From an uncultured virus (IMG/VR IMGVR_UViG_3300005549_000008) (Duplodnaviria > Heunggongvirae > Uroviricota > Caudoviricetes), in the IMG/VR virus record IMGVR_UViG_3300005549_000008: 64,000 bases of DNA, one strand, 5' to 3'. Of this stretch, positions 5,884 to 64,000 are shown one piece after another. The stretch's first letter is position 1. Every line of letters begins with the position of its first letter. A model generated the notes under the pieces. That model was not told the origin of the DNA. It searched no databases and saw nothing but the letters and a program-made list of their open reading frames with translations. A program made the position numbers and the translations under genes.

Positions 5884-5902
5884 CTAGCTGTCGGTAGGTC
5901 CC

Positions 5903-5938: not shown

Positions 5939-5956
5939 GAGGCCGATCGGACCACG

Positions 5957-16590: not shown

Positions 16591-16611
16591 GGTGGTTTCC
16601 TTTGGTTAGGG

Positions 16612-16689: not shown

Positions 16690-16694
16690 AGGGG

Positions 16695-16780: not shown

Positions 16781-16808
16781 ACATGCTCACCACGCTGACC
16801 ACCAGACG

Positions 16809-16849
16809 CAACAAAGCCCGCCACACGCCTAAAGCATGTCGAGCGGGCT
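16809..16849 (-). terminator. Terminator-like hairpin in the leader of the tRNA-like/Pth2 unit
   Basis: AGCCCGC..ACATGC/GCGTGT..GCGGGCT followed by TTGTT on the minus strand. Confidence 0.6.
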
Positions 16850-16872
16850 GGATGCGGCCAAAGGCCTGACTG

Positions 16873-16926
16873 TCAACCGCAGTTGAGCATGGCCGAATAG
16901 TTCGTCACGACCTGGTCAGCTGTCAA
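16873..16926 (-). promoter_or_regulatory. TTGACA promoter followed by the 5-codon uORF MLNCG*
   Basis: TTGACA (16926-16921)-N18-AACTAT, then 6 nt, then ATG CTC AAC TGC GGT TGA (16890-16873). Confidence 0.5.
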
Positions 16927-16943
16927 CCAGAAAAAACCTAGGC

Positions 16944-17465
16944 CTAGGTTCCCGGCGTGGCGAAGAGCACGAACATGATGTCCAGGTTCCCGCCGCCGTA
17001 AGGCGCCAAGCCGGTATTTTGAAACGCCAACGCGATTTGGTTCCCATCCACGAATACGCTCGCGATGGCTACCCCGGTTCCTGGAGTGCTCCGAAATTGA
17101 GCCAAAATGATCGACGAGGCGCTGATCGTCTGACTGAACGGATTGTTGACTCGCGTGCCGTCGTCTTGAGTATCAGGGGCTAAGGCTGGGACCGCTACGG
17201 AGACCGCCACGCTCGGCGCAGGAGTACCGTTGACGGGCTTCCAAGCACCCGCGGTGCTGCGCCCGGTGGGACGGATAACGCTCGGCGAGCTCGCGGCCGT
17301 CGCGGATCCCGGGATCCACTGATAGTGGGTGGCATTTTCGACGACGTAGCACAGGGCACCGGCATCGAGCTCGTCAGGAATGACGCCTGCGAGCGAGTCG
17401 ATTGCGCCAGACAGGAAGGTGCGGGAGCCAATGTGACGAAATGCAACAGCAGATTGGTCGGACAT
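16944..17465 (-). CDS. Putative virion spike/decoration protein; shares an N-terminal domain with 47267 and 49884
   Basis: IGSR...G..DSL....ELD.GA...V.N...Y...G.W pattern. A class A motif at 17474-17508 places the start at ATG 17465. Confidence 0.65.
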   Translation of the reverse strand: MSDQSAVAFRHIGSRTFLSGAIDSLAGVIPDELDAGALCYVVENATHYQWIPGSATAASSPSVIRPTGRSTAGAWKPVNGTPAPSVAVSVAVPALAPDTQDDGTRVNNPFSQTISASSIILAQFRSTPGTGVAIASVFVDGNQIALAFQNTGLAPYGGGNLDIMFVLFATPGT

Positions 17466-17520
17466 CGAGCTCGATAGTACGAGCACCTCCCGAGCGGACG
17501 CAACTTTTAGGTCATGAACG

Positions 17521-17560
17521 AAAAACGACCCCCTGGCGCAGCACCATACGCCAGGGGGTC
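17521..17560 (-). terminator. Intrinsic terminator downstream of the tmRNA
   Basis: 12-bp stem GACCCCCTGGCG/CGCCAGGGGGTC followed by GTTTTT on the minus strand. Confidence 0.9.
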
Positions 17561-17572
17561 TTATTGGGTGTG

Positions 17573-17926
17573 TGGAGCCGCCGGGAATCGAACCCGGGTC
17601 CGCAGAGGGTTCTTCTAGAGCTCGCTCACGCGCGTAGTCACGATTGGAGCCCGTGACAGCTCATTGGGGGCAATGTGCCCTCCACCACTCGGCCTCAGCT
17701 TCGGTGGGCAGCGCCAGCCGAGGATGCGCGCCACCTATCTCTTGTGGTTTACGCCGCGGCTCTACTAGAGATCCTGAAGCAGCGACGGCTCTTACGCAGC
17801 CTTGAGGGCCGGAAGGGCGTTGCAATTGTCGTTTGCAGTTGACGAGCCCGTTTGATTCTCGGCAGACCAGGCGCTGCCGGCGCGGTCACTCTAGTCGTTA
17901 CCTCCACGTCGAGACCTGTCAGCCCC
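17573..17926 (-). ncRNA. ssrA: tmRNA; tag peptide ANDNCNALPALKAA*
   Basis: 5' end GGGGCTGACAGGTCTCGAC and 3' end CCGGGTTCGATTCCCGGCGGCTCCA give a G3-U70 alanine acceptor. The tag ORF runs 17836-17792; a TTGACC-N17-TAAGGT promoter lies upstream. Confidence 0.95.
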
Positions 17927-20031: not shown

Positions 20032-20878
20032 TCAGCAGGTCACCCAGTTCGGCGGCGGCCGATCTTTGAAGCCCCGAGCCTTGACCGGCCAATAATTGGC
20101 GAGCTCTTTGCCGCAGACCGTGCAGATGAGAATGCGCCAGTAGCGGCTCGTCGAGTTCGAGAGAACACTCAGGTTGTTACGCTTGACGTCGTTGTACTTG
20201 ACGCACGACGTCTGATGCTCGCGCCCCGCCTTGCCTCCACACCATAGGCGTGTGTTCTTGGAACTTCCCGAGGTGCGCCGCTCTTTGAGCTTGCGTCGGT
20301 TTAAGGCAGCAGGTCGCATGGCTAGTCCCGGAGCAGCTCCCGGTAGCGCAGTTTACCATCTTCCCCGCGGTGCGGATCAACCACAACCCGCATGCTGCCT
20401 GGCACCTGTTTCAGGAATGACTCCTGGTTGGCGATCTGGCCGATGCGAGCAAACGCGACGTTCATGCTGCGCATGCCATCATGGAGCTTGATCAGGCTAG
20501 AAAATACTGCCACGCAGGCCACGTTCGGGTGGTCCGCGAGGTTGATCAGGGACACGGTTCCGTCCGGATTCTTTGGGACAAAGTAAGACTCGATCACGAC
20601 TCTGGAGATGGTCCCAGGCTTCATTTTGCTACCTTGAGGCGCTCCAAGTAGCACCCGTGGTGGCCACAGATTAGCGGATACTCCACGTTGTCACTGATCA
20701 CGTCGCACCGCCAAGCGAAGTCGTGCGGCGCGCAGGAAATCGTCCCCGTTTTACCGTGAGCGGCGAGCCAGGTCTGAGCCGGGCGAAGCATTTCCTGCTG
20801 AGTGAACGGCGGCTCGCGCGCGCAGCTGCACCCGAACAGCAGCACCGCGAGTGCCATCGCAACGCGCGCCCTAGTCAC
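20032..20878 (-). other. Three short hypothetical genes (the one at 20621-20878 is lipoprotein-like)
   Basis: Consecutive ORFs; lipobox-like LLFGC in 20621-20878. Confidence 0.55.
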
Positions 20879-22316
20879 GAAACAACTCCGGAAGGTCGAG
20901 TGCGATGTTCACCAAGCACGCGCCGAGCCGCGTCGCTTCTTCGTGCATCGCGTGGGACAGATGGTCATCGACGGTGTGGTGCACGTACTCATGGAGCAGG
21001 AGGTCCAGCACTTTGACGTCGCGCACCGGGCGCCGGAACCACTCCTCGCCGAGCAGTCCGTAATTCAGGACCATCTCGCTACCGACCGCATCAAAGCAGG
21101 CCTCCCATTTCGCCTTGGGTTCGTTCACGATGTAGATTCGCACTTGCGACTGCGTGAGCTTTGAAAAAATCGCCTGAGCGAACGTGACGATGCGCTGCAT
21201 GTCGGTTGACCACTGCTCCACAGGGATGACCTGTTCCGGGCGCCCATCCTGACCATAGGGCTTCGGGCTGGGTGTGACCTGTCCGGCGGGTAGGAGCGCG
21301 CCCGCCGCGCGCACATTGTTCCATTGCTCCTTGGAGAAGGCCCCGCCCGGCACCACGGTGTAGCCCTGGCTCATCGCGATCTTTGTGCCCTCGGGATCGG
21401 ACGGATCGACGATCACCGCCTTGTCACCGAAGCGGGCTCGTACCACTGTCTCGACTGCAGGGAGCTCACAGCGGGGGTCGCTCAGCGCATCGTCGACCCA
21501 GGGCGCTTTCGCTTCGGGTAGGCGGTCATGCATCTCGCTCAGTACGGCGACTCGGAGCGAGCGCAGGTAGGCCGGAGGAACATTATTGCGCTCCCAGTTG
21601 ACGGGCACACGCTGCTGGACGTCGTAGTGCCACGCATCGCCCGTTTCCACGACCGGGATACCCATCTCGAAAATGTGGGCCGTCTCGCCCGGGCGCACCG
21701 GGTAGACATGCACGTCGGTGCGGCGCTGAGTGGGTCGCAGAACCCCTTCTTCGTCGGCACGAACCGTGGCGAGCGAACACGAGAACGTGTACAGGATGGG
21801 TCGCTGGTCGAGTAGCTCGCCATTGAACGTCGTTTCGATATGCGCAGGCGGCGCCACCATTCTCACGCCGGCCACCATCTCCTCGAACTCCTCGCGGGTT
21901 ATCTTGAAGGTGCCGGAGAACTCGGTACCCGATGCGGTGCATTGGCTGCTGTGGTACCGTTTGTCACCCTCGATTTTCACCGAGCCCTTGGTGGTCACGA
22001 TGTGTGCGGACTGGGCGAGCGCGATGACAAGCTTCTCACCGAGCTCGAAGCGGCCGCGCTTGGTCGGGTCGGCAGCCTTCTTCGAGTCACGGAACATGGT
22101 GTAGATGCTCTTCAGATCCGCGAACCCTTCCGGGTTGTCGTCGGTCACCACGATGGAGCACGCGGGGCGTCCGGGGAGCACCTTGGCCTGCACGTGCACG
22201 TGCGTGCAGGGCTCATCCCAGGCATTCTGCAGGAGCTCGTAAATGATGAAGGCCTTGGGACGGTGCGCGAGCTTGCGAGCCAGTCCGGCGCGGTCGACAA
22301 CGAGGCTGTGCATCAT
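20871..22316 (-). CDS. GHKL (HATPase_c/MutL-Hsp90-like) ATPase with a C-terminal HExxH motif
   Basis: ELLQNAWD (N box), VTDDNPEG (G1), RGRFELG (G2) and GT (G3); LLLHEYVH near the C-terminus. Confidence 0.8.
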   Translation of the reverse strand: MMHSLVVDRAGLARKLAHRPKAFIIYELLQNAWDEPCTHVHVQAKVLPGRPACSIVVTDDNPEGFADLKSIYTMFRDSKKAADPTKRGRFELGEKLVIALAQSAHIVTTKGSVKIEGDKRYHSSQCTASGTEFSGTFKITREEFEEMVAGVRMVAPPAHIETTFNGELLDQRPILYTFSCSLATVRADEEGVLRPTQRRTDVHVYPVRPGETAHIFEMGIPVVETGDAWHYDVQQRVPVNWERNNVPPAYLRSLRVAVLSEMHDRLPEAKAPWVDDALSDPRCELPAVETVVRARFGDKAVIVDPSDPEGTKIAMSQGYTVVPGGAFSKEQWNNVRAAGALLPAGQVTPSPKPYGQDGRPEQVIPVEQWSTDMQRIVTFAQAIFSKLTQSQVRIYIVNEPKAKWEACFDAVGSEMVLNYGLLGEEWFRRPVRDVKVLDLLLHEYVHHTVDDHLSHAMHEEATRLGACLVNIALDLPELFRD

Positions 22317-25191: not shown

Positions 25192-25599
25192 ACTGGGATC
25201 TAATGGCGACGCGCCACACAATATTCTCGGGGCAAGCGAACTTCTTCGACCCAACGCGATCTCCGGGTTGGACAGCAGAATGCAAGCGACGTCTCCGTGC
25301 GCTCCGTAATGCGGGCAAAGCCAAGCGGCAGGAGCGTAAGATGCTGAGGTACTGGCTGGGGCGGCATGATCGATGGCGCGGAATAGGGTCAGGCGAACTG
25401 GGCTGTGACCGCGACAACTGGCAAGAACTCACGGAGCGGTTGCTAAGCGTGCTGCTTAGACCAATCGTGTTCCGTACGGTACGCCAGGCTCCGCGTGCTC
25501 CCGAACAGTGCTGGATAGATGTCGTCCGAGAGGCCCAGGCGGCGGCAACGCATGGATTGGAGATGGCGATCACGCCTGACCCTGGTGTAGGCTTCCCAG

Positions 25600-26376
25600 G
25601 TGACCCAGTGGACCGTTCTGCTGACTGATCTGCGCCACAGCGGCTGTTTAGTCGAGCTAGCTGAGTGTCTTCTGTACGGCCTGCGCGGCCTGGGGCTCAA
25701 CGCCGATCTGTCGAGGCGACCGCTGCCCGGCACGCGCCACATTGTGCTCGACGCTCACCGTCTGACGGAGATCCCGTCGGATAGCATCATCTACCAAACG
25801 GAGGTGCCGGGTTCGGGTTGGTGGAATGCGGCTTACCTCGACAAGTTGCGCCGGCACGAAGTCTGGGAGTACTCCGAAGAAAATGCGCCACGCTATGCCG
25901 ATTACGGGCTCACTCCCCCCAAGGTGGTCTCGCCGGGTTGGGTTCTGGAACTCGAGCGTATCCCGATCGATCAGCCCAAGGAGATCGATGTGCTGTTCTA
26001 CGGCTCACCCTGCGAGCGCCGCACGCAGGTGATGCACGATCTGACGGTGCAGGGACTGAAAACCATGTGGCTCCTCAGCTTCTACGGTCAGGAGCGTGAT
26101 GTGTACATTGCACGCTCGAAGGTCGTGCTCTCGATGCACTTCTATCCCAATGCGCCACGCGACCACGCGCGCACCTTCTACCTCTACACCAATCACGTCG
26201 CCGTCGTAGCAGAGAGCAGCGCGGGCTTCACCGGCACCGCATTCAATCAGCTCGCACCAGAATGTCGTCGCCTGATCGATACACAGCAGTATAAAAAGCT
26301 CGGCGGCGAGGGGTATGACCAGATTCGCGCGCGACCCATGGCGGAGACGATAGGCGCCGCGCTGCAGGCTCCCTGA
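25600..26376 (+). CDS. Putative glycosyltransferase (GT-B-like C-terminal domain)
   Basis: IDVLFYGS...RR...YGQERD..IARSKVVLSMH...VVAE pattern. Confidence 0.65.
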   Translation: MTQWTVLLTDLRHSGCLVELAECLLYGLRGLGLNADLSRRPLPGTRHIVLDAHRLTEIPSDSIIYQTEVPGSGWWNAAYLDKLRRHEVWEYSEENAPRYADYGLTPPKVVSPGWVLELERIPIDQPKEIDVLFYGSPCERRTQVMHDLTVQGLKTMWLLSFYGQERDVYIARSKVVLSMHFYPNAPRDHARTFYLYTNHVAVVAESSAGFTGTAFNQLAPECRRLIDTQQYKKLGGEGYDQIRARPMAETIGAALQAP

Positions 26377-26594
26377 GATGCTCCCTGACGGTCCGCTGTG
26401 CGTGAATTGTGGGCATCAACCTTGCCCGTTCTGCCTCGACTGGTGCGATCACATCACCGAAGACGATGAGCTCTGCTGTGACGCCGAGTGCGTGTACGCA
26501 CCCGGAGAGCACGAAGCATGGATCGAACAACTGGACGCGATCCGGCGGGGGCAGGCGCCCGGAGAGCACGACGCACACTGAAAAGGACATAGTG

Positions 26595-27137
26595 ATGCAC
26601 GGTTCCGTACTGCAATTTGTCGCTCGCTGCCTCCGTCCAATTGAGGTGCGGGGTCAGAATGTGATCGAGCTCGGGGCGTACGACGTGAACGGCTCGGTGC
26701 GGCCGCTCGTGCTGCGCTACGAACCTGCTTCTTACGTCGGTGTCGATCAATTTCCCGGTCCTGGTGTGGATGTAGTGCTCGACGCCACCGCGCTCGATGA
26801 ATTCATGCAGCACAATTTACAGCCGCACTCGTTCGGTGTGGTGATTTCGACGGAGATGCTGGAGCACGCCCAAAATTGGCAGGCGGCGGTCGAGGTCATG
26901 GGGGCGCTCCTGCAGCCAGGTGGCACCCTGATTCTGACCGCGCGTGGCCCAGGCTTCGTGCACCACAATCCGCCGGACTACTGGCGCTTCACGGCGGACG
27001 ATGCGCTGCTGATTGCGAGGCACCTGGGTTTGATCGTCATGGAGATCGAGGATGACCCGCAGGTGCCGGGCTTCTTTCTGAAGGCAAAGAAGCCGAACGG
27101 TCTCGCATTTGCCGTCGAGCGCGCACCTGCGGGCTAA
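26595..27137 (+). CDS. Class I SAM-dependent methyltransferase
   Basis: Motifs VIELGAYDVNG, YVGVD, STEMLEH, LQPGG and DYWRF; AAGGA RBS. Confidence 0.88.
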   Translation: MHGSVLQFVARCLRPIEVRGQNVIELGAYDVNGSVRPLVLRYEPASYVGVDQFPGPGVDVVLDATALDEFMQHNLQPHSFGVVISTEMLEHAQNWQAAVEVMGALLQPGGTLILTARGPGFVHHNPPDYWRFTADDALLIARHLGLIVMEIEDDPQVPGFFLKAKKPNGLAFAVERAPAG

Positions 27138-27141
27138 GCGC

Positions 27142-29490
27142 CTACAATCCCGCGCCCATCACTTGCGTGAACTGCGCGGCCGTCAGGGCAGCGTTGTAGA
27201 TGCGTACGTCGTCGATGCTTCCGAGGTACCATTCGCCGCCCCAGAAGTTGTGGCCGCCGATGGCTAGGATGCCGGTGCTGGCTTCGACGTTGCCCGAATA
27301 GGTTGCGCTGGCTACCTGGACGCCGTTTACCCAGACCCGCACCGTGGTGCCGGACTTGGTGAGCGCCATGTGCGTCCACACGGTGGTGGACAGATTGCCG
27401 CCGGTGCCGACCCAGTGGTCCTGTCCATTGGTGCGGATCCAGGCTTCACGGGGCGCGGCGTAGAGCAGGTAGGCGAGTCCGGTGGGAGCTTCCTTGATCA
27501 GGATGGTCTTGTACGCACTGACGTTGCTCGGCTTCACCCAGGCGGCGATCGTGAAGTTGAGGTTCAGGTCGAGCTGATTGTCATCGGGCACCGTCACGCG
27601 GTTGCTGCCGCTGAAACTCAGACACTGGCCGTACTTGCAATTGCCGGCAGGTTGCCAGGTGGGACTGCTGACGAGCGTACCCGTGTGTCCGTTGCCGGAG
27701 GCATCGGCGGCGACGCTGCCTGACCCTTCATTGAACGACCAGCCCGCGATCAGCGTGGGTAGTCCGGATCCGCCTGAGCCGCCCGACCCGCCCGAGCCAG
27801 CACTGCCGGCACTGCCGGCGGCGCCTCCCGTGCCCGCTGCACCTGCGTTACCCGCCGCGCCACCCATACCGGCGCCGCCTGCGACGCCACCGGCGCCACT
27901 AGAACCACCCGTACCGGCCGCGCCCGCTTGTCCGCCGGCTCCGCCAGTCCCTCCCGCGCCGCCGCTGCCTTCGATGGAAGCGTTGGTGAGCGTGAACACG
28001 CTCATGCTGGGCAGGGAAAAGGACCCGTTGCCGTTCGACAGAGCCACAGGTGTGCCTGCTTGATGGTAGGATCCCGTCGTCGAAATCACCGGAGTGAGCG
28101 AGCTCGGCGCGGGCGCTGCTACGTTGAGGGACAGCGTGCCGCTCGACCAACAAATGCCGACGATCGCGGTCGAGCCGTCTGGATTACGAAACCCGACCAG
28201 TTCGACGTCGTTGTCGCTCTCCGTAACCGTGATGCGGCTCGCGCCGGGCCGGATGTACTTGAAGGCGTGCTTCGCGGCGTAGTAGGTCGGCTTCGCGGCG
28301 TAGGTAAACTGATCGAGCTCGCTCTGCGTGGGTACGTCCGATCCGCCGGTGAACACGTTGCACAGATTCGAGGATCCCTGGAAGGTCGTGGCGAGTAGCC
28401 CAAAGGTTTCCCAGGCGTCAGCGCTGTGCGCATGCGGCGCATCGTATTCCGTCCACACGAGCCCGGCCGTGACTCCGCCCTGCAGTGCGCCCACGAGATT
28501 GCCAGCCAAGTCGACTGCCTGATTCCACCCTGTGGTGTAGCAGTTCTGTCCCGGCGGCACTGTATTGAACTCGGTGAGCCAGTAGGGTGGCGTATTGAAG
28601 GAGCGGTCGGTGCCGAGCGGCGCACTGCCGGAGTAGCGGTGGAAGGCGTAAGCCCAGAGCCGGGAGCGAATCACCGGGTCGGCTTGGATGGATTGTTCCC
28701 AGGCATTCGCGTTGGACTCCTGGACGCCTTCGGGAGCCTGAATGCCGATGCCGGCAAGCTCGGGGATCGCATCCATCCGCTGAACCAGGGCCTGTAGAAC
28801 ACGCTTGCCCTGTGTGACATCGAGCGAGAACCCTTCGGGTGGTAGCGTGGTTTCGTTCCAGGGACTGATCAGGGTGAATGCGGGCTTGGGATCCGGCGCG
28901 CGCGTTTTGGCGTAGACCATGACCGCGAGCACGGTCTCGACGAACTCTGCTTCGTCGGCTTGCGCCAGGCTGTTCGGGCCGAGCCAACTCGGAAGCAGGC
29001 CGTGCGCCGACAGCGTGATGTTCTGCACGCCCAGGGTGTTGAGCTCGCGGATGTAGTTCCAGAGATCAGTGAAGCGCTTCGACTGAAAGATGGCATCGTA
29101 GTACGTCCAGTTGAACGTGTTCGGGTCGGCGTTATCGTTGGTGCTCTCCCAATCGGAAGTCCCGTGGTTGATCTCGATTCGCCAGAAGTTCGCACCGAGA
29201 TCGTGCACGAGCAGATCCAGCGTGGGCTTGACTGCCGCGCCGTCGGTGCCCCAGTTACGTGGCTGACCATTGACTCCGAACCCGTAGATGATACCCGGCT
29301 CGGGAGCGCTGGAAGCGGATCCCGCTGTTCCACCGGTGCCAGCACTGGCGCCGCCGGCACCGGCAACCCCAGCCGTACCACCCGAGCACTCGGTGGCCGC
29401 CGCTTGGAAGGCGCGCGTGGTGGATGAGTCCGGGGAACAACAGAGCAGCAAGGTTGCGAGCAGGACCACGTAATGGAGTAGAGTTTTCAT
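27142..29490 (-). CDS. Secreted GH30-like (clan GH-A) glycoside hydrolase with Gly-rich linkers and a C-terminal LamG/concanavalin-like domain
   Basis: Signal/lipobox, GFG, WNE (acid/base), WLTE (nucleophile), KYIRPGA and FRNPDG. The C-terminal WSFNEGSG..DASGNG...G.IDDVRIYN.AL is a LamG signature. Confidence 0.85.
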   Translation of the reverse strand: MKTLLHYVVLLATLLLCCSPDSSTTRAFQAAATECSGGTAGVAGAGGASAGTGGTAGSASSAPEPGIIYGFGVNGQPRNWGTDGAAVKPTLDLLVHDLGANFWRIEINHGTSDWESTNDNADPNTFNWTYYDAIFQSKRFTDLWNYIRELNTLGVQNITLSAHGLLPSWLGPNSLAQADEAEFVETVLAVMVYAKTRAPDPKPAFTLISPWNETTLPPEGFSLDVTQGKRVLQALVQRMDAIPELAGIGIQAPEGVQESNANAWEQSIQADPVIRSRLWAYAFHRYSGSAPLGTDRSFNTPPYWLTEFNTVPPGQNCYTTGWNQAVDLAGNLVGALQGGVTAGLVWTEYDAPHAHSADAWETFGLLATTFQGSSNLCNVFTGGSDVPTQSELDQFTYAAKPTYYAAKHAFKYIRPGASRITVTESDNDVELVGFRNPDGSTAIVGICWSSGTLSLNVAAPAPSSLTPVISTTGSYHQAGTPVALSNGNGSFSLPSMSVFTLTNASIEGSGGAGGTGGAGGQAGAAGTGGSSGAGGVAGGAGMGGAAGNAGAAGTGGAAGSAGSAGSGGSGGSGGSGLPTLIAGWSFNEGSGSVAADASGNGHTGTLVSSPTWQPAGNCKYGQCLSFSGSNRVTVPDDNQLDLNLNFTIAAWVKPSNVSAYKTILIKEAPTGLAYLLYAAPREAWIRTNGQDHWVGTGGNLSTTVWTHMALTKSGTTVRVWVNGVQVASATYSGNVEASTGILAIGGHNFWGGEWYLGSIDDVRIYNAALTAAQFTQVMGAGL

Positions 29491-29584
29491 GAATGTTGCT
29501 TTCTCAGAATGGCACGACGCCCAACCTAGAGGATGTACCTCAAGGTGAGACAGTAATCAAAGACTAGATCTAGGTGTGGGTCAG

Positions 29585-32500
29585 TTAGGACGCGCGATGG
29601 AAGGTAGCTCCAATGGCTCGCTCGCTCACGTTGCGTCGGTCGGTGGCGTTTTGGGTGTTACGCATCCAGAAGCCTTCGCGAGGGTCATAGCCGTCACAGA
29701 GATAGTGCTCCGGCCAGAAGCTAAAGATGTCACCAATGATCTCCAGAACCCACTCGGAGGGCTCGTACACGTTGGGCCCGGCGTAGGGTCGCGGCCCGTT
29801 CGCACCACCGTGATCGGCGCACGGACATCCGGTGTAGTGGCACACGCGGCACCAGCTCGGGTCAGCGGGGATCTTGTGCATCAGTTTTTATGTCCAGCGC
29901 CGAGCGCCTTGCGCGACTTGTCGTAGACGGTTTCTGCCATCTTGACGAACGTCTCGCGTGAGCAGCCGCCGGGCGAGTTGCGGTCAGCTATTCCTAAAGC
30001 GGTGAGCAGCAGAGCGAAGGCTTGCTCCTGTGCGGATAAGCCTGAGGCCGTTGCCAGGTTACCAAACCCGATCAAGCTACCCGTGAATTCCTCTTTGGTC
30101 AGGGGCGCCTCCAAGCGTCGGCCCAAGCTGGATCTTGAGCATCGACATGTTCCCAGTTGGGCCACGTCACGAGCCCATAGCCGCCGCTTGAATGGAAGCA
30201 GGCCTTCAGAACCTCACCATCAACCGAGACTTCCAAAACCTCCAGGTCGCCAACGGAGCCGACTGGAATGTACTTGTTTGCGTGGTGCCGATAACCGGTG
30301 ATCCGCACGTTACGAATCCACAAATGCACGATACCGATCAGTTTCGGCAGCGGCCGTAGATCGGGTCCCTTCGCGAGCTCCATGCGCGCCATTTTAGAGA
30401 ATCGCTTTGATCAGCTCGTGCTCATGCTCGGGAGCGATGAATAGGTTGTAGCCCTCCATATGGCAGCCCAGCAGACGGCATTGGCCGCTTTCGATCCGAA
30501 CTGCGTGCTGCGCCGCGCGCAGGGTAGAGACGGCCTTCTGGAGTTCAGGCAGCCGGCGGGTCGGGACGAAGCACGCGAGCTCGGTGCCCAGCATGCGAAT
30601 CACCATGTCGGTCTTCATTGTCAGAATCCTACGTCAGTGGGGTATGGATCTTCCCTCAGTCGGGAGCGTTACGAAGCGCCATAACCGATCCCGGTCGGAC
30701 CAGTCGAGTGACATTGCAATCAGCTCCCGGGCAAAACAGCGACACTGTGGCTGCAGGGCCGGTAGCAGCGCGCCGACCGCCACCAGGGCCGCAATTTGAC
30801 CAGCTTCGTCGGAGCAGGCGTAGAGCTCCCAGCAGCGACTGATGGCACCGAGCGCGCGGGAGTCCTGACCCGTGAGCGCACCCATGATTTCGGCTCCTGG
30901 AAGTGTGCCACCGTTCGCCTGGAGCACGGGGCTCCGTGGATCTTTGAGGTTGGCGCGCAGCCAGCGATCCCAGGTCAAGGGTTTGTTCATGGGGTCTCGA
31001 CTGCCGCGCTGCTTACAGCTCCTTCGATCATTGATTCTTCAGGAACTTCCACGTCAGCCTCGATCCAATGCCTAGCCTCTTCATCTGCATCGAGGCCATC
31101 AATCGCCGCCGACATCCTGTCCACGTCGGAACCGCTGTCCCAGCCAACAGCGTTCCAGTGACCCTCTTTCGTAATAGCAACTGCAATCCGAACGCGAACC
31201 GTTCTTTTCTTATTAGCCATCGTCTGTTTCTCCACGAGTCTCAATCAAGGCTTCATGGTTCCGTATCTCGGCGGTACCAGACGAAGCCACAAGGCTTGCA
31301 TTCAGCAACGCCGTAGCCGTCCTCGAGCTGCAGGTGCAAGCGCCCAGCCACGTGACACTTCGGGCACTCAGCGGTATGGCGCCCGGTGACGCGCAGTTGT
31401 CTGCTACCGAGCTCCGGTGGCAAGCGTACCCAGTCGCTGGTAGCGATGGAGCCGATGAGCATCATTCGCTCGTCGTCTTCACTCTCGGAGGCTAGTTCAC
31501 CAGCGCGACGTTGAAACCACTCGGTGCTCATGTGCGTTCCCATCCGTGTTTGAGGCGATAGTTCACGATGTCGTTGCCGACGCGCTCCGACGACACACCA
31601 AAGATATCGGCGACGAGCGCCGCGGTGATCAGATGGCAGACCACTTCCGGCCGCAGAGCATCAGATTCGCCGCCGGAGTCGTTTTCAGCTACCCAGGCAA
31701 CCGCCTCGCGGTAACTTGCTCGTTTCATCGGCGAGGCCCGGGCGAGTTTTCTCGAGCTTGTTCTGCAGCCAACTTCACAACCCTGCGGTTGTGGCTCATC
31801 ACCAGCCATTGGTACAGTTTTCGGAGAAGGGTCTTCATGTGGACCGATCTCCAGAATTTTGGGACTGACGACACTCGTCAGCTTCATAGCGTTCATGGAA
31901 AACACCGATCACACGCCAGGTATAGGAAAGCCAGCGCGCCTCTGTCGGGCCCAGATCGTTCACGCCACGTAGGATCAGTGCGACTCTGCGCTTACCGTAC
32001 TGGTGCGCAGCTATGCTACTGTCTTTCTCGGTCATGGGAAACGCGGAGTCGTAGCGCAGCATATCCAGAGGGAACTCTCCAGAGCCTTCAACGACCACGA
32101 ACTTTTCGAATACCTTGATGGTCTTGGCTCTCATGGTTACCTGCTCTACGGCTTCGACCGGACGTAGCTTCCTTTCAGGAGTTGAAAAACTGCTCTCGAT
32201 TCATTCCGTGAGCGGCGCCGTAGTGACGAGCCCAGGACTCTTCCTCGGCTCGGGTCATAATGAACTGCCCCCGGCACCCGAACCACGCTCGGGCTGGGCA
32301 GCTCTCAAACGTATGCTGGTGACAACAGCAGCGGCACGGCGCGAGCCGATCGAGGGTATCGACGTCGCCAGCCCACAGGGCCTGTTCCAGAGCTTGGCTC
32401 ATTCAAGGAGCCCATTCCACTACGCCGCTGGCACGTCGAACACCCAGACGGTAAATCACCGATTCTCCGTTGGGCTGCTGGCGCCATAGGGTAACGATCA

Positions 32501-34906
32501 TCACCGTTTCACCGGTGCGCTTGAGCTCAGCGGCGCGTAGCACAGCCCAATCGTCGTCATCCATCAGGCGAGCACTCAGCGCTTCGCGTTCTGCGTCGGT
32601 GAGCCGGCAACAGCGCTGGCACCAGCGACTTCGTAGTTTGTGAGAGCATCCGCAGCAGCGGCAGATCATGGTTTAGCTCTTGAGCTTGCGCGTGGGCCAT
32701 TGGTGGAAAAACTTTCCCAGGACGCTGACGTTGATGATCTGCTGCGTCTTCCATTTCTCTACCAAGCCGTCAGCCTTGGTGATGGTCAGTATCGAGTGGC
32801 CCCAGACATGATCGCCGGTGAGTGTCGCAGCAATATGAATACCGACCTTGCTCTCCAGTTTCTGGATGAAGATGGTGTACTGCTGGCTGGCGCGCTCGGC
32901 GGCATCGTCGATGAAGTTGACCACCTTCTTGTCGTCACGCTCACCATTGGTGGTCAGCGCCCGGAAGCGATGGTATCGCGCCTTCTGAACGGCGTACTCA
33001 CGGCTCCAGCTGTTACGCGGATAAGCATGGTACGTCGGATCCTCGGCGTGTTTGGCGAAGACGCGCTCCGCGTAGTCCGAGGCCTCCTTGCGAGCGCGCT
33101 CGATCGCGGAGGTTCGCAAGGGCTCGACTGCGGAGGCGATGGCGGTCATGTGTTTCATCCTACGTTTCAGTCGACAATTGCTTCCCGGCTTTCGACCAGT
33201 CTCTGGGAAGCAAACTACCTGTCAGTAGGTGCCCATCCAGGATCCGGAACAGCTCGCGCACCCTGGAGCGTGTGCGTTGACTGTCGTCACCATCCAAGGC
33301 GCGGATCAGATTGCGTAGGTCGTCGAGAGCCCGGTTCAGGTCCACAATGTTCGGCAGTTCGATCTCACGATGTGTTTGTGCTGCATTGTGGTCGAAGCGG
33401 ATTCCGGCGTTCCACTTGGCAAAAGCGCCCTCGAACGACTCTCCGAAACAGAACTCTTTCCAGCAACCATCGGACAGGATCCCAATCGCGAAGCGCTGAT
33501 GGGGCTTCGGAGATCGCGGGCGCGCTACTGCGAAACCCGCATCGCCGACCATGCTACGCATGCGCAGCTCAGCCTGCGGTTGCGTGAGTGCGCCTGCTAC
33601 GTCAGCCATATCCACCCATTGCGCGCCGGTTAGCCATCTCACCGCGTTGTGCGCCCTGGCAGGTACGGTGCTCGCTCGCGGCCAAGATCGTGTCGACGTA
33701 TGGCAACTGGTGACCAGCGGAAGCTACCAGAAAGCAGCCACTGGGGCTGCTCGAGTCGCGTCGGTAGACGTGATAGGTGTTGGGGCTCACGCTGTGCCCA
33801 CTGGTCACGTGGCTGAAATCGTCGCGCGCGAGCGCATCACGGAATTTAATGAGCGTGATCGCGTCCTCGTGCGCGCGCGTGACCGTACGCAGGCCCCACT
33901 TCAGCCAGATCGCAGTGCTCGTCGCGCGACCATCGAACGCGGCACGCATGGTCTCCAGTTCGTCGCGCAGTTTCAGGCGTAGACCTAACTCCAACTCGGC
34001 GAGCTCAGCGCCGCCGAGGGCCCGCCGTAGGGGGTAGTTACATTGGTCCTGGACGCTGCGCACTACGTAGTCGGGGCAGTCAGCGGGAGGAACGATCGGG
34101 TAGACGGCTTCGACGGTGTTCATGATTAGGTAGTACGAGTCCGGAGTTTTATTCTTCCCCTTCGAATTCATGCGTACCGTCGTGACCATCCTCCAGGACG
34201 CAGCCGAGGAGCCCACCCATACAAGGTTCGGGAGTGCAGATGACCCGGATGGCCACTGCGAGCGGGCTCCGATCAATCTGCGGACACGGTTGCGACCCAT
34301 GGTGAGCTTGGCAAATGTGGCAGAAGGGCGCACTCACGTCGGAGGCTCCTCTCCCAGCGAGCCGGCCGGGTACCATGGGCGGTGTGCTTCTCCGGGTGGC
34401 AAACAAGCCAGGGTCGAGCGGTCACATTCGGAGGAGATGCGTCCGCACGCGCAAAAGTACTGCGCTTTGCTTTTGCTTGCCAATTCCCGGACCTGCTCCC
34501 AGGTGAGGTTCGTGGACCGCGCCCACTCCAGAGACTCTAGAGCCCACTCGTAGCCTGGCATCAGCTCCACGAGCTTCGCGTCGACCATGTCCTGGAGTTG
34601 GTACCGGTAACACTGAATATAGTAGGGCACGGCCTCGCCGGAAGGTAGAGCGCGTTTGGCGAAGTTGACGCCTCCGAACCCGGAGTAGAGAGCACCATCG
34701 ATGCGCACAGCGTCGATCTTGCAGAGTAGCCAGTACGGCATAGGGTGAACGTAACCGCCCTCGAAGCTCAAGCGCAGCGCGTAACGACCGGGCGTCAGCG
34801 CGAGGCGCTCGTGATCCGCCGCATAGTAGCTGGGGCAGTGCGATACCTCGACGCCGGGAGCGACAAGGTAGGAGCCGATGATCACGACCACGGTGTTAGA
34901 ATTCAT
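29585..34906 (-). other. Block of ~14 short early-type hypothetical genes
   Basis: Tightly packed minus-strand ORFs (e.g. 30394-30618, 30634-30990, 31835-32134, 32673-33149, 34334-34906). Class B motifs at 30630, 32147, 33161 and 34916. Confidence 0.6.
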
Positions 34907-34940
34907 GATCTAGACTACGTCGCGCGGCACCAAATGTTCC

Positions 34941-35132
34941 TTATTTTCCATGTAGAACCTTGCGTAACCGCGCGAACAGAAATGGGTGAGCGTCCTTATA
35001 TTTCGGTCCACCCACAGCCACCGGCATCGATCGGCCATTCGGGAACTCGTAGATATGGTGGTCACCGCGCTTGCGTACTAGGCGCCCACCGTTGGCCAGG
35101 ATGTAGTCGCGAATGAAGTCAACCGTCTTCAT
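34941..35132 (-). CDS. hicA: HicA-family (dsRBD-like) mRNA interferase-like protein
   Basis: 63-aa basic protein with LVRKRGDHHIYEFPNGRSMPV, matching the HicA R.KGSH pattern. Confidence 0.65.
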   Translation of the reverse strand: MKTVDFIRDYILANGGRLVRKRGDHHIYEFPNGRSMPVAVGGPKYKDAHPFLFARLRKVLHGK

Positions 35133-58728: not shown

Positions 58729-59801
58729 CAAGATCGAGAGACGGCGGACATCGCTGCAGACCAAGGGTATGAAACTCCTGAATTGCACGCTGTGCGATGA
58801 CGTGATCCGCGTGACCACGATCCTGCGCCACTGTGAGTGTCAGGCCAGTAGCGCGATCGAGGGTCCCGACGGAATCAAAAAAGATGGGCCGTGTCGCTTG
58901 CTCGGTATTCCTTGGGAGGAGTACGACGGCGCGTATCCGGGTGCCGTACGCAAGTTCCATGTGTTACCGAAGTGAGATCCACCAATGTCGCCTTCTACCG
59001 CTGCGCAACCTGCACGCGCACTTGGTCCCAAGCTCCCTCTCACGAGCTCGAGTGCAGTTGCGGATCGCTCTACGTCGTCTGGCTGAACTACCCTACTTTC
59101 CGTGATTCATCCTCGCGATCGGCCGAGTTCCGTGACCACTACCCCCTCTCCCGTCCACGCTGAACCGTTACCGCAGAGATGCCTGGAGTGCTCCGCGCGC
59201 TGTCGCTATTGCCACCGGCCGCGCGCGGTCTCGGTCAATGAATTTTCCAACAATTCCATCGAGCTCTGTGGGCGCAATCTGTCCCTGGATGCCATGCTGA
59301 AAGTGGGGCTCGAGGGCGTGTTCCTGAACTGTCAAAGCCACGAGATCTCCTACTTGCACGGTCAGGTGAAGCGGCTCCAGGACCTGCTCGATCTCACCAC
59401 ACCCAAAATTCCATGAAAGAGCTGGCGGTGCGGAGCAGCGCGACGACGGGAAACGCCGAGGTATTTTACCAGGGTGAGTGGCATGACCTGGGCCACAGTT
59501 ACGCGCAGCACCGCCACTCTACCTGTCTGACCTTCCTCAGTACTCTCGCTTCACCCGAGCAGTACGCTCGCTGCATCGCGGCCGGCGCAATGCGCTGCAT
59601 CTACTGTACCCAATGGATCCTGATCGACTCGCCGCCGGTCGCCACGTGTGCAGAGCATGCTCCTTACGAGGTTCGCTCCCCGCACGCGCGCACCGAATGA
59701 GCCTGGTCTTGCGCACTACCGCGACTCATGAGACTCTGGGAACGGCGACCCTTCGCGTTTAGGCACGCAATCTGACTTGGAGGGTCGCCATTCCCATCAC
59801 C

Positions 59802-60272
59802 ATGGCTCTCGACACTACGCGCATCATCCCTCACCTTCATCAAGGCAGCGAGCCCCCGCAGGGTCATGCGGTCGCTGTTTCCGGATTCACTGTCCTGGTG
59901 CTCTGCGCCCAGGAGATTCAGCCTCCCGACAGTTCCTATCCTGGAGTCGTCGTCCTGCGCTGTCCGCTCGATGACACTTCCCAGGCGCTCACGGCGGCGC
60001 AGTGGAGTATGATCATGCGCACAGCTCAGCTCGTCGCCCACCATGTACGGCGCAACCATCGCGTCCTAGTAACCTGTCAGATGGGCATCAATCGTAGCGG
60101 TCTGGTTACTGCTGCAGCGCTGCACATCCTGACGGGTCGCTCGGGCTGCGCGACCGCGCGCTTTGTCAGCCAGCGCCGCAAGGTCAGGCGTGCCGGCGAA
60201 GTCTGGCACGCTCTCAGCAATGAACGCTTCCAGCAGGAGCTCTGCGAGCGCCTACCGGGCATGGCTCGATGA
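59802..60272 (+). CDS. Dual-specificity protein phosphatase
   Basis: CX5R motif VTCQMGINRS and the PLDD acid loop. Confidence 0.9.
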   Translation: MALDTTRIIPHLHQGSEPPQGHAVAVSGFTVLVLCAQEIQPPDSSYPGVVVLRCPLDDTSQALTAAQWSMIMRTAQLVAHHVRRNHRVLVTCQMGINRSGLVTAAALHILTGRSGCATARFVSQRRKVRRAGEVWHALSNERFQQELCERLPGMAR

Positions 60273-61334
60273 CTAGCTATTCTTGATGCCGGGGATCCGC
60301 TGCTGACCACGGCGTTCGCGGTAGCGCGCCATATACTCGGCGTCTCGTTCCATCCCGAGTGCTAGCGCAATTTCGATGAGCTGATCCGCTGTAGCGACGC
60401 TCACCCAACTCGGTACCGCAGTTTCACCAGCCAGTAGGCCTACGGCCGTCTCCGCGATGGGTTTGAGATCGATGTACTGGCCAGATCCTTGCTGATCTTC
60501 CCAGTATTCGTTCGCCACTTCGCGCGCCGCTTCGAACAAGGTTCGACTATCAAATCCTTCTGGCCAGTCCTCGACCTCTTCGTCATCGGGCCAGTTTTCG
60601 TTCCAGGCCTTCAGGAACTCTTTTTCGAATTCCGATCGAGCCCAATTTGACCAAGCCTCATCCTGCTGCTCCATCTCGAGTGCGCTGTGAGCCTCCTCGC
60701 TGATCAGCGGATACTCATCGAGCGCGCTTAGCGTCTCCTGAATCGACTCATCGAGCTCAGCATACACCACGAGGATGGCATAGGTGCCGTGACCGCCGTA
60801 TGCGGTTGCCCAAACTGCAGGCTTCGATCCTTCTGGGTGAGCTTCCTCGAGCAGGTTCTCGAGCTCCTTGTAATTCGACTCGTGCACTGAGCCGCCCGAG
60901 TAATCTGACCCGCTCGCGTATTTCACCTCGTACCACTGGCGCGGCTCCTCATCGATCCCGCTGCCCTGCTTACCTGGCTCCCACCTGCCGTAACGGATGC
61001 TTTCGCCGTTTTCATCCGGCGGGTCGTTGTAGCGAAAGTCGATCGGGTTGAGCTCGTTCGGAACGAAGTCACCGGGCGCAGCATTGCGTGTATAACGCGC
61101 TCGTTCTCCGTTCAATCTGGCCGCCATGGTCTCGTTGATGACGATCCAACCGATACACTGCCCACCTTGCATTACTGCCCAGGTGTGACCGTAGCCGCGA
61201 AGCGGCTCGACTGTTGCACCAAAAGGCAGGTTGTGCTGATCAAACTGCACCTCGGGCACCCAGATCCGCTCAGACCCCATGAAAGCCCAGGTACCATCGC
61301 CCGTAGCTGCATTTCTGGTGTGACGCCGTTTCAT
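60273..61334 (-). CDS. Acidic multi-domain hypothetical (putative polyprotein)
   Basis: Begins MKRRHTRNAA; internal RYTRNAA and DFVPN; very acidic C-terminal domain (SGSDYSGGSV...LDEYPLISEE). Confidence 0.75.
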   Translation of the reverse strand: MKRRHTRNAATGDGTWAFMGSERIWVPEVQFDQHNLPFGATVEPLRGYGHTWAVMQGGQCIGWIVINETMAARLNGERARYTRNAAPGDFVPNELNPIDFRYNDPPDENGESIRYGRWEPGKQGSGIDEEPRQWYEVKYASGSDYSGGSVHESNYKELENLLEEAHPEGSKPAVWATAYGGHGTYAILVVYAELDESIQETLSALDEYPLISEEAHSALEMEQQDEAWSNWARSEFEKEFLKAWNENWPDDEEVEDWPEGFDSRTLFEAAREVANEYWEDQQGSGQYIDLKPIAETAVGLLAGETAVPSWVSVATADQLIEIALALGMERDAEYMARYRERRGQQRIPGIKNS

Positions 61335-61343
61335 ATTTGCCTT

Positions 61344-62750
61344 TCACATGAAGTGAAGCTGTCCATCGTCGCCCACAACAATCCAGACTTCCCCGAACGC
61401 TTTACTGGCATCAGTTAGCCGTGTTGCTTCCGGCTCGCTCCAGTCGCCGTCCCAGAAACCTGCCCCATGTCCATTGCGCGTCAGCCAAAAATCATGACCG
61501 GCGAGCTCGGAGTCAGTATATTCGCCGCGGACAGTAACTCTCTCGACGGACGCGAGTGCGTTAGCCTGCTCCGCTTGAAAGCGTTCACAGTCGGAAACAG
61601 CACGGCTGATAGCATCGGCTGAGAAGTCCTCGATGCCGTAATTCTTGTCCAGCGGCTCACCTCCCGCGTCATCACTCTCGTCATTGCTGGACCATAGCGC
61701 TGTCTCTAGGTAAGCCCTCGTGAAACTGTCTAACTGCGCGACACCCTTATTGTTGGCCTCGTAGCGAGGTGACTTGAGTCCACGTCGAACCGGGTCACCT
61801 TCTGCATCGAAGCGCGCGTCAGGATCGACATCGACGAACACGTAGTAGTCGCAAGGATTGTGACCGTCTTCGGTGATGCATTCCATGCCCCACCACATCA
61901 GCTCTTCGGCTTCTGTTTGAGCAAAATCCATCTGATCCGGCGTGTAGCTATCGAAGTAATCCGAGTCGGTATCGCCGGGCTTCAATGTCAGAAACGACAT
62001 GGTGCCGCGCAGGGCACCGTCGGAGTCGATGGGATCCGACGGCGCTACGCCCATGTCATCACCAACGAACAGCGGCGTATCCTGGCCTGGTTCGTAGAAG
62101 GCGTATCCGATCTTCGATTGACCCGTTTCGTAGCGCCGATTGGTGTCCCAGGTCAGCAGTCGATAGCCGTTGCTCTCGTAGTCGAAGGTATCGGGGTTTT
62201 CTTTGCCGACCCCAGGATCGGTTGCTAGCCACACGTTGCGCAGGACACGATGGTCATCCAAGTCCGGCACCTTGATCCCGGAATTGCGATGGAGCTCGTG
62301 GCGCGGATCAGACTGTCCTACTTGCCGCAGATCACCGTCGACCGTGGCCCAGAAAATAACGGAGCCGAGAATCCCGCGCCGGTGCGCTTCGCGTTGCGCT
62401 TCCTGTTTGGCTTCACCCCTCGTGGCGTAGCCGCGCGAATGCCCGACGCCGAGGTGCGTCCCGCCGCGCTGCACCAGATCCACGTACCAGCGCCCCGAGC
62501 TCGAGTGCTGATGCAGAATAAAGTCATCCTGTGCGGCCTGCGTGCCGCTATAGATGCCTGGGTTCACGACGAGATCGCGCGCCGAGCCGCGCCAGCTGCC
62601 GCGGCGCTCAGGCTCAAACGGCCGCTCCTGACTCTGGTGCTCGCGGCTGAGGGCACGCAGGCGGACCTTCGTACCCATGCGCGGCGCCGCCAGCGGTCCT
62701 TCCTGGCGCTGAGGCGGCTTCGGGAAACGGTTGGGACGGTGCCGAGGCAT
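61344..62750 (-). CDS. Multi-domain hypothetical (putative polyprotein)
   Basis: Linkers RHRPN, DLVVN, ELHRN and RYEAN; last domain AGHDFWLTRNGHGAGFWD. A class A variant at 62758-62792 lies 7 nt before the ATG. Confidence 0.75.
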   Translation of the reverse strand: MPRHRPNRFPKPPQRQEGPLAAPRMGTKVRLRALSREHQSQERPFEPERRGSWRGSARDLVVNPGIYSGTQAAQDDFILHQHSSSGRWYVDLVQRGGTHLGVGHSRGYATRGEAKQEAQREAHRRGILGSVIFWATVDGDLRQVGQSDPRHELHRNSGIKVPDLDDHRVLRNVWLATDPGVGKENPDTFDYESNGYRLLTWDTNRRYETGQSKIGYAFYEPGQDTPLFVGDDMGVAPSDPIDSDGALRGTMSFLTLKPGDTDSDYFDSYTPDQMDFAQTEAEELMWWGMECITEDGHNPCDYYVFVDVDPDARFDAEGDPVRRGLKSPRYEANNKGVAQLDSFTRAYLETALWSSNDESDDAGGEPLDKNYGIEDFSADAISRAVSDCERFQAEQANALASVERVTVRGEYTDSELAGHDFWLTRNGHGAGFWDGDWSEPEATRLTDASKAFGEVWIVVGDDGQLHFM

Positions 62751-62802
62751 GCCTCCGAGGCTACCGAACCTCCTCCTCTCCCCGCAAGTTTTCGGGCCGA
62801 AT

Positions 62803-63534
62803 TCACGGACATTCCCAAGTCTGGGCTGCCAGCGCTGCCTTGAACTCCATGAAAATATCGTCCTGCGCGAGCGTAGTGTTCATTTCGGGGCCGCTGCAGA
62901 CCTCGGTACCCGTGGAATTGAACGGACTACGATCAGGATCCGAAGCGCGACTGACGACCGTGGCTACCTTCCACCCGGTCGCGGTGGGCTCGAGTTCGAA
63001 GCGAAAGTAGCCCTGCGCGCTGAGCTTGAAGTTGCAGGTGTCGGTGAGCTCGGTGCCGCACTCTCCAATGTCAGCGATGATGTAGGGCGCTGCAGGAATC
63101 GTGACGTCCGCTTCGATCGTAGTGCCCTCGAGCTGAAACGGATAGGTCCAGTAGACCTCGGGGAACGTCGCGCACGGCGTGGTGTGGCACACTTCGCAGT
63201 AGCCCAGCGACTCACTGGTGTAGTCCTGCCATGTAAACGTTTCGAGGAAACGCAGATCGAGCTCGGCAATCGAGCAGGCTGGCTCCGGGGGAGCTCCGCC
63301 GCTCGCGCTGCCGCCGCCACTGATCGCTCCACCTTGCCCCGCGACAGCGCCGCCCGTCCCGGGGGAGCCAGCGCTGCCGGCACTGCCACCCGAGCCTGCA
63401 GCCGGTCCGCTGCCGGCGCCCGCGGCGCCCGCCGTCGGTCCCGACCCACCTGTGAGCTCGGCAGCCGCTTGAAAGTCCGCGCCGCAACCGCACACCAGCA
63501 GCGCCACACCCATCAGAGCACGCAAATCAGCCAT
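62803..63534 (-). CDS. Lipoprotein with a Gly/Ser/Ala-rich linker
   Basis: LVCGC lipobox, a GGSAG-type linker and a Cys-containing C-terminal domain; class B motif at 63544-63569. Confidence 0.7.
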   Translation of the reverse strand: MADLRALMGVALLVCGCGADFQAAAELTGGSGPTAGAAGAGSGPAAGSGGSAGSAGSPGTGGAVAGQGGAISGGGSASGGAPPEPACSIAELDLRFLETFTWQDYTSESLGYCEVCHTTPCATFPEVYWTYPFQLEGTTIEADVTIPAAPYIIADIGECGTELTDTCNFKLSAQGYFRFELEPTATGWKVATVVSRASDPDRSPFNSTGTEVCSGPEMNTTLAQDDIFMEFKAALAAQTWECP

Positions 63535-63569
63535 GCCCTAGTATACGGCCGGACCGCCTGGTCGCTTCC

Positions 63570-64000
63570 CTAGACGATGGTCGGGGGAAATGGCAGGCGT
63601 TTCATGGTCTGTAGGTGCGTGTAGGATATCCACATGCTCCCCTCGCGCTGACTGTCCACGGCAGCGTATTCTTCGGGCAAGTAGCGACGCCTCTCGCGCT
63701 CGGCGCCGTAGATGATCAGGGTGTTTTCACGGTGCGGCACGTGGGCGATCACCTGGCGGCGCGTCACAATATCCCAGAATTTCTCGCTACCACAGGCGTT
63801 CCCGTCCGAATTGGATCCCAGGTAAATGACCACCGGTGCGCGCGCGATCAACTGCTCGATGCCTGACCAGCGGTTCAGCGGCCAGGACGCGAATGCAATG
63901 TCGATGGGCTCGTAGTAGTCGCTGAAGTCCGAGCGCACCTTCCGAATCGTGGGCGGCAACGGGCGGTTGTTGCCGTCGAAGTACAGGTCTACTGCCACCA
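63570..64000 (-). CDS. Hypothetical protein; 5' end probably outside the window
   Basis: The ORF runs to the window edge. Confidence 0.5.
   Translation of the reverse strand, partial: VAVDLYFDGNNRPLPPTIRKVRSDFSDYYEPIDIAFASWPLNRWSGIEQLIARAPVVIYLGSNSDGNACGSEKFWDIVTRRQVIAHVPHRENTLIIYGAERERRRYLPEEYAAVDSQREGSMWISYTHLQTMKRLPFPPTIV

Follow-up and report, generated by a model that had tools for sequence, protein, structure and literature searches.

Tailed phages are known to deliver pre-made proteins that a protease releases. The internal proteins and Alt of T4 carry a capsid targeting sequence and are cut by gp21, and the ejection proteins of SPN3US are cut by gp245 at A-x-E (PMC7411985), while the polyvalent proteins of phages and conjugative elements, in which unrelated domains occur together or apart, have been proposed to be packaged and processed (PMC5512222). 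Here we analyse a 64,000-nucleotide stretch of DNA from an uncultured virus (IMG/VR record IMGVR_UViG_3300005549_000008; the whole stretch is called the window below), in which five genes carry a short motif, [HYFLM]-x-x-N, mostly at their starts or at borders between unrelated protein modules. We favour, with moderate confidence, the reading that this motif is the cutting site of a viral maturation protease acting on packaged proteins. Core-polyprotein maturation is known from eukaryotic jelly-roll viruses; if our reading is true, an undescribed group of large tailless viruses of bacteria would combine this feature with the delivery of protease-released proteins, with an Asn site, and a viral protease specific for Asn would represent a new kind of enzyme specificity. 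A literature search found no description of this Asn-seam system, subscription journals being mostly outside its coverage.

Modules and seams in five genes of the window

The five genes, each named after the coordinate at which it starts, are made up as follows (lengths in amino acids, aa; a motif copy at a module border is called a seam).

61344-62750, minus strand: 62750, a four-part polyprotein of 468 aa, made of a basic leader and modules I, J and A
62562-62750, minus strand: basic 63-aa leader of 62750, with RHRPN at residues 3-7, ending in DLVVN (62562-62576)
62283-62561, minus strand: module I, aa 64-156, without family, ending at seam ELHRN (62283-62297)
61752-62282, minus strand: module J and linker, aa 157-333, acidic, without family, ending at seam RYEAN (61752-61766)
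61347-61751, minus strand: module A, aa 334-468, equal to phrog_1915, a family without an assigned function that is widespread as a stand-alone phage gene
60273-61334, minus strand: 61334, a polyprotein of 353 aa with RHTRN (61311-61325), module K, seam RYTRN (61083-61097) and module E
4665-5855, minus strand: 5855, a polyprotein of 396 aa with MRRN, module M, DYKHN (5487-5501), an unmatched middle part, seam RHRSN (5037-5051) and module H
4224-4646, minus strand: 4646, a very acidic Ocr-like protein of 140 aa with KLARN at 4623-4637, the usual downstream neighbour of the polyproteins
2377-2967, plus strand: 2377, a two-part protein of 196 aa with seam HHESN (2737-2751)

All five open reading frames and all 13 motif copies quoted by the first-pass annotation, which had been made from the letters alone, were found in their places, the MIAN copy holding only with a GTG start at 2377. 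A search with the 62750 protein listed 120 proteins, nearly all of which share one part of it only. Its leader is present in 44 collected proteins (40 after removing those at least 90% identical), where nine different modules follow it, and BLAST matches to the leader mostly end at residue 63, the Asn of DLVVN. Module I also occurs, arranged otherwise, in proteins P0009 and P0027 and in one protein of G002 (relatives of the window are labelled G001 to G006). Twenty shorter homologues of module J project to a median start at 156 (range 106-185) and a median end at 311; for module A, 44 stand-alone homologues give a median start of 335 (range 313-350), with phrog_1915 itself matching aa 338-460 (E=4.6e-25). 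Splitting the protein at the motif, as had been suggested, therefore agrees with the homologues, whose median starts of 156 and 335 compare with motif Asn residues at 156 and 333.

Module A was also seen after Lys-Thr-Ala-like stretches in other proteins, and inside proteins of 1450-2150 aa from other phages (P0044, P0050, P0056, P0060 and P0063; L012-L018, L020, L063 and L091). A leader-like basic segment stands in the middle of a polyprotein in G003 (77955-79439), flanked by YSRN and FAVN, so that the leader itself may be a module.

In 61334, module K covers aa 9-84 and the acidic module E aa 85-353, the latter being preceded by the motif in homologues as well. The last module of 5855, H, follows HQRN, LEQN or HTPN in relatives, and in two relatives with unrelated upstream parts the counterpart of the last 2377 module comes after LQPN and LAPN. 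Taken together, six of the eight internal copies proposed as module boundaries are supported by homologues (DLVVN, ELHRN, RYEAN, RYTRN, RHRSN and HHESN), and DYKHN is supported weakly, by one homologue. DFVPN of 61334 was rejected as a seam: it sits 5-9 residues inside module E, and one homologue has no Asn there. A dual-specificity phosphatase gene (59802-60272, plus strand) has a stop that abuts the stop of 61334.

Counted by frequency, the five motif proteins hold 19 matches to [HYFLM]xxN where 9.7 are expected from composition, while the other 116 called genes hold 103 against 101.8. Enrichment thus applies to the five proteins and not to the window as a whole (122 versus 109 +/- 9 in shuffles), and it is position, not frequency, that carries the claim, as the first-pass annotation had itself stated. 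A narrower pattern, chosen post hoc, is enriched about twofold in all five genomes.

Position was assessed among the leader-bearing relatives. In an automated junction test on 40 leader proteins, the downstream homology junctions, 42 in all, had the motif in 26 cases, where 5.6 were expected and 100,000 simulations gave no more than 16; Arg-Asn was the most enriched dipeptide in the junction windows. This bears out the proposal that unrelated modules are joined at the motif; the same modules are also found apart or reshuffled in relatives. The 16 misses comprise six cases of one motif-less junction type, near misses close to the border of the junction window, and breaks that fall within modules. 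Sorted by adjacency type, 28 of 33 types have the motif in most cases, and 19 of 24 without the leader; dropping four artefact types, each due to one seed matching a related module, leaves 17 of 20 non-leader types, where chance is 6.7% per junction window, a count that is partly circular because the seeds were trimmed with seams already known. Three of these 20 types still miss it: B-to-C, G-to-Q, and A-to-I, which carries a near-motif with Gln in the first place.

Could the seams be gene-fusion relics, left by genes that began Met-x-x-Asn and perhaps still translated from internal starts? Eleven of the 28 seam motifs in the loci do start with Met, and 5855 begins MRRN, yet Met is absent from the other 17 and from every internal seam of the window, the stand-alone homologues of other phages mostly lack the motif at their start, and the repeats in the core protein described below would be left unexplained. 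We regard this origin as quite improbable.

Contigs from four public runs, aligned to 59800-63600, include a natural in-frame variant. A related strain in run X4 is represented by a 278-base contig (depth 5.2, aligned at 85% likeness) that skips 61095-61326 with four letters between. The skip keeps the frame and drops aa 5-80 of 61334, which takes out one motif repeat together with the entire module that separates the two R-[HY]-T-R-N-A-A copies. The contig has 22 other letter differences, with 14 of the 18 listed ones at third codon positions; the variant is one contig and could be either a loss or a gain of a module. Other contigs bridge the seams of 62750 in the same way as the window. If the variant is a loss between two repeats, it speaks for the seam being a DNA-level recombination signal with the peptide as a by-product, and so does the codon of the seam Asn, which is AAC in 27 of 28 cases compared with 177 of 237 elsewhere. 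Against this, the other seam codons vary synonymously, the window has AAT at ELHRN, RHTRN and RYTRN, and unrelated codons keep the first residue within one chemical class. Furthermore, microhomology can explain where modules are swapped, not why the motif fills the arm of the core protein, and we give a recombination signal very little credence.

The segments between the motifs are acidic, as the first-pass annotation had noticed: net charge per residue is -0.13 in module interiors, compared with +0.15 in leaders and +0.13 at seams. Such interiors fit DNA mimics but prove nothing, and an anti-defence function for them is hypothetical. The five motif proteins are hardly annotated: 62750 matches phrog_1915, 61334 has ArdA matches of module E that fall below the cut-off (E=0.012 and 0.007) and were seen in one of 11 members, and the other three gave nothing convincing; module E had no match in the PDB. 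For the 4646 family, T7 Ocr was the top PDB profile match (E=0.044 over 91 aa, weak) and one homologue weakly matches Pfam ocr (E=0.011), whereas the window protein alone gave no ocr match, and its low-confidence model (predicted local distance difference test, pLDDT, 65) gave no Ocr or other informative structural match. KLARN is poorly conserved, an Asn motif being present in only three of 13 homologues, those three being near-identical to each other. The earlier suggestion of anti-defence modules is therefore weakly backed for the 4646 family and module E, and by nothing for the other modules. The motif also serves as a map that predicts module borders in unannotated proteins, and it picks out small acidic modules such as phrog_1915 as counter-defence candidates.

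Core protein, promoter-like motif and kind of virus

Relatives encode a core protein of 630-860 aa with an Arg/Lys-rich arm before hydrophobic segments. Counted over the arms from five relatives, an H, Y, F, L or M stands three positions before 57 of the 74 Asn residues (10/12, 11/14, 11/13, 12/19 and 13/16 per arm) compared with 6.4 in shuffles, and the last arm copy stands just before the hydrophobic segment. Since the consensus had been defined without the core protein, the arm is an independent test of it.

The 10-13 repeats along an arm, and the five of 13 window copies that stand at protein starts, would also suit a docking or sorting tag for a capsid, membrane or chaperone protein, with no cutting and each module keeping its tag. 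The tolerance of matches inside modules, and searches that found none of the known maturation protease families, point the same way. However, one tag per chain would be enough for loading, yet nearly every seam has one, and copies also precede short basic C-terminal tails. A fixed last residue, with a hydrophobic one three positions earlier and a small one following, is typical of protease sites, which also counts against the tag, and we consider it unlikely, though worth keeping in mind.

A promoter-like motif, AAAA[GC]T[TA][GC]C-N17-21-[GC]?TA[GCT], has eight copies in the window, all intergenic (652, 5903, 5938, 17508, 47223, 49839, 56362 and 62792), against 0.15 in shuffles; the pattern was read off the window itself and is thus a post hoc consensus match. 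Three copies concern the motif genes.

62756-62792, minus strand: promoter-like motif before 62750 (consensus match)
5902-5938, minus strand: promoter-like motif before 5855-4646 (consensus match)
652-688, plus strand: promoter-like motif heading the 694-4227 gene run that contains 2377 (consensus match)

There are six copies each in G001 and G002, in both of which one heads the first gene of the capsid operon, and none in G003, G004 and G006. The idea of a promoter common to cargo and virion-type genes, first raised for the window, is thereby upheld for 62750, 5855, the 2377 run and the capsid operons of G001 and G002. G001 also encodes a sigma-70-like protein. The leader gene is a same-strand neighbour of the Ocr-like gene and of a gene for a 188-aa protein in nine of the 25 loci where a leader gene was called; a core gene is present in five of those nine and a capsid candidate in four, many other loci being short.

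A leader pattern search found one viral and 36 metagenome loci and no match in genome contigs, and no member of the Asn lineage was among the first 91 viral loci examined. The largest contig encoding 62750 has 130,572 bases; G001 is complete at 135,429 bases with terminal repeats, and complete relatives measure 135-136 kilobases (kb). From the 121 genes of the window, G001 shares 23, G002 19, G003 12 and G004 four, G001 having pieces of each of the five motif genes. A bacterial host is indicated by the peptidoglycan enzymes that the window encodes. The best-matching public runs are rhizosphere and soil metagenomes, with no RNA dataset among the runs listed as matching.

The T4-like head context that the first-pass annotation implied did not hold up, and the relatives apparently lack tails. 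Among the 139 G001 proteins of at least 100 aa, Pfam recognised no terminase, portal, HK97 capsid, tail protein, packaging ATPase or S77/S78 prohead protease. Six-frame terminase searches (PF03237) were negative in all five relatives, four of them complete, with a control positive in 5/14 and the other half of the window's own genome not covered, and six-frame searches for A32 ATPase and S78 protease (PF04586) were negative in five records with working controls. A Walker A scan gave kinase-, helicase- or AAA-like candidates only, so that a divergent packaging motor is still conceivable. The sole tail-like signal is a weak tape-measure match (E=2e-5) of one 523-aa protein. Among small genomes, there are known jelly-roll viruses in which no packaging ATPase can be detected (PMC5894146).

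What the relatives do share is a cluster in conserved order: a transglutaminase-fold protein, small proteins ending in hydrophobic stretches, the core protein and three beta-rich proteins. The first beta-rich protein is a capsid candidate, predicted with a single-jelly-roll fold (pLDDT 81). The top structural match, of middling strength, is SPV1 (Z 7.1, root-mean-square deviation 3.4, 134 residues aligned), followed by HHIV-2, P23-77 and HCIV-1 (Z 5.0-5.2), while Foldseek gave no match at E<=0.001.

Several further features lie in the window or its relatives. A collagen-like Gly-Ala-Thr repeat (1-155, plus strand) ends a fibre-like gene running off the window. On the minus strand, a Pth2 peptidyl-tRNA hydrolase gene (16261-16590), a tRNA-Val with an AAC anticodon (16612-16689) and a transfer-messenger RNA (17572-17926) are grouped at 16261-17926, with a second, uncalled tRNA-like stretch directly adjoining the tRNA-Val. 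A 481-aa protein without a Pfam match (20871-22316, minus strand) has an HExxH motif near its C-terminus and an N-terminus that we take to be GHKL-like. TnpB/Cas12f-like proteins are encoded in G001 (27479-28945, 488 aa, weak Pfam match) and in L111:7649-9211 (520 aa). Two long proteins, in G003 (13588-17337, 1249 aa) and G004 (2457-6512, 1353 aa), both end in two Asn-motif copies and are presumably tyrosine-recombinase-like, judging by motif.

A second lineage and the candidate readers

Two further complete genomes, G005 and G006, share cargo modules with the window, G006 also having the Ocr-like gene, and both keep the same order of transglutaminase-fold protein, basic membrane-anchored core and capsid candidates. 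Their core arms are without the Asn motif. Instead, Glu-ending motifs are found in arm and cargo (arms 3 versus 0.6 and 3 versus 0.4, cargo 9 versus 3.9 and 5 versus 3.5; p 0.019, 0.007, 0.018 and 0.27), a cruder Glu pattern giving p 0.32, 0.04, 0.01 and 0.05. A change of specificity in a genome-encoded reader would be expected to give Glu motifs in arm and cargo together, and these counts are suggestive of a second lineage that switched the motif in both. A host protease that cuts the seams after entry would account for a viral reader being among candidates only, but the motif seems to change jointly in core and cargo between lineages and the genes are co-regulated with virion genes, so that we find a host enzyme barely credible.

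Three candidates for the reader emerged, none of which can be assigned. The transglutaminase-fold protein heads the capsid operon and keeps Cys-His-Asp in six of six genomes, at about 20% identity between lineages. The 188-aa protein (L134:1418-1981; G001 117418-117984) has its gene between those for cargo and core, keeps a Ser, a His and an Asp invariant and starts with a motif-like sequence in 11 of 13 homologues; it gave no match in Pfam, PHROGs (best E 0.2), PDB or Atlas, and was not found in G005 or G006. The zincin, a HEFGH protein of G001, G002 and G003, is not adjacent to the polyproteins and had no BLAST match in G005 or G006. A C1-like protease of G001 was discarded as a general reader, being shared with G002 only. 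A second transglutaminase-fold gene (L163:1583-2254; G005 81583-82257) is 30-35% identical to the Asn-lineage enzyme and has Gly in place of the catalytic Cys.

The failure to find known protease families would also suit an Asn that cleaves itself by succinimide chemistry, with no protease at all. Such self-cutting occurs in inteins and some capsid proteins, and the labile context is Asn before Gly, Ala, Ser or Pro. It needs a folded environment, though, where these sites lie in varied linkers, and the second lineage appears to use Glu at like places; self-cleavage strikes us as very improbable.

Several points weigh against a viral maturation protease as the reader of the motif. Matches are tolerated inside modules, 62750 itself having DYESN at 190-194 and WLTRN at 422-426. 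The Asn of the internal LTRN of module A is kept in 12 of 28 leader-bearing and 27 of 44 stand-alone proteins (p=0.15), and a lower p for its avoidance, obtained when the protein-search set served as comparison, is confounded by the way in which those proteins were gathered. The sequences behind the junction counts are related, so that these do not represent independent events, and the junctions B-to-C (0/9) and G-to-Q (0/1) have no motif. The core, capsid and candidate protease genes come from relatives, outside the window. Statistics for the Glu lineage are modest (p 0.007-0.32) and were obtained post hoc, the capsid and core genes of that lineage have no detectable homology to those of the Asn lineage, and its capsid candidates gave no match to the Asn-lineage profile. 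None of the known maturation protease families was found by Pfam on G001 or, for S78, in five records. Finally, Gly-Leu-Gly-type matches lie on most structural-cluster proteins in both lineages (G001 109000-129000, G005 98500-108100, G006 25400-35100), among them the membrane proteins beside the transglutaminase-fold gene, and raw matches of this type are nearly absent from the window cargo; this enzyme may therefore read the other motif.

We nonetheless prefer a viral maturation protease. The seams, the shuffling of modules, the motif in the core arm, and the promoter and neighbourhood shared by cargo and virion-type genes are direct observations, from which we infer a membrane, packaging, cutting after Asn, delivery and an anti-restriction role. 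The recognition site would be [HYFLM]-x-x-N with a small or basic residue after it, and its virus-encoded reader would act in an apparently tailless virus of about 130 kb that has a jelly-roll capsid and, probably, a membrane inside it. Late in infection, the membrane-anchored core protein would condense the genome with its Arg/Lys-rich arm, and accessory proteins with basic leaders and linkers would be drawn into the same core. Cutting after Asn would then free DNA-binding pieces from the membrane anchor and release the acidic modules, which could enter the next host with the DNA, and recombination at motif-coding seams would add or remove cargo. In its fullest form, which we put forward only tentatively, the virus assembles without a motor round a membrane-anchored, protamine-like core polyprotein, an Asn-specific protease (unrecognised or transglutaminase-like) matures the core and frees anti-defence cargo, and sister lineages have recoded Asn to Glu jointly in core and cargo.

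Comparison with known systems

Like T4 and SPN3US (PMC7411985), this virus would close the leaders of presumably packaged proteins, delivered along with the DNA, with a short motif, and a single reader would serve both core and cargo. Unlike in those phages, the motif ends in Asn instead of Glu, several modules are joined in one chain, the capsid candidate is a jelly roll, and terminase and S77/S78 protease were not detected in the searches above. Compared with the shared targeting peptide of T4, the 63-aa leader is found on one window gene only, the others having short basic starts.

SPV1, of the Portogloboviridae, has a jelly-roll shell, an inner membrane and a nucleoprotein core (PMC8459092). 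The likeness would lie in a single-jelly-roll capsid protein together with an inner membrane and a nucleoprotein core, SPV1 being the capsid candidate's top structural match at middling strength. Genomes of 135-136 kb and peptidoglycan enzymes set our group apart from these archaeal (Sulfolobales) viruses of about 20 kb, and the family profile mentions no protease or polyproteins (PMC8459092).

With polyvalent proteins (Iyer et al. 2017, PMC5512222), the chains described here share at least two unrelated domains per chain that are also found apart or recombined. The phage cases considered there are mostly portal-terminase phages, with no recurring seam motif given in the passages compared; the supplementary domain alignments of PMC5512222 might contain some of the modules. 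Our chains differ in having no Pfam match to an LPD or in-chain metallopeptidase. Their ArdA match falls below the cut-off.

The adenovirus protease acts on pVII, pVI and pX, African swine fever virus (ASFV) has the core polyproteins pp220 and pp62, and the site in both viruses is Gly-based. An adenain-family protease had no Pfam match among the 139 G001 proteins of at least 100 aa, no six-frame or structural search having been made. The differences are that the host is inferred to be bacterial, that the site is Asn and not Gly, and that the modules are variable accessory phage genes. With adenovirus and ASFV, the group would nevertheless share a tailless jelly-roll virion, a hydrophobic residue three before the cut, and a basic core protein or polyproteins with many copies of one site, which here is seen in five relatives (57/74 Asn) and not in the window itself.

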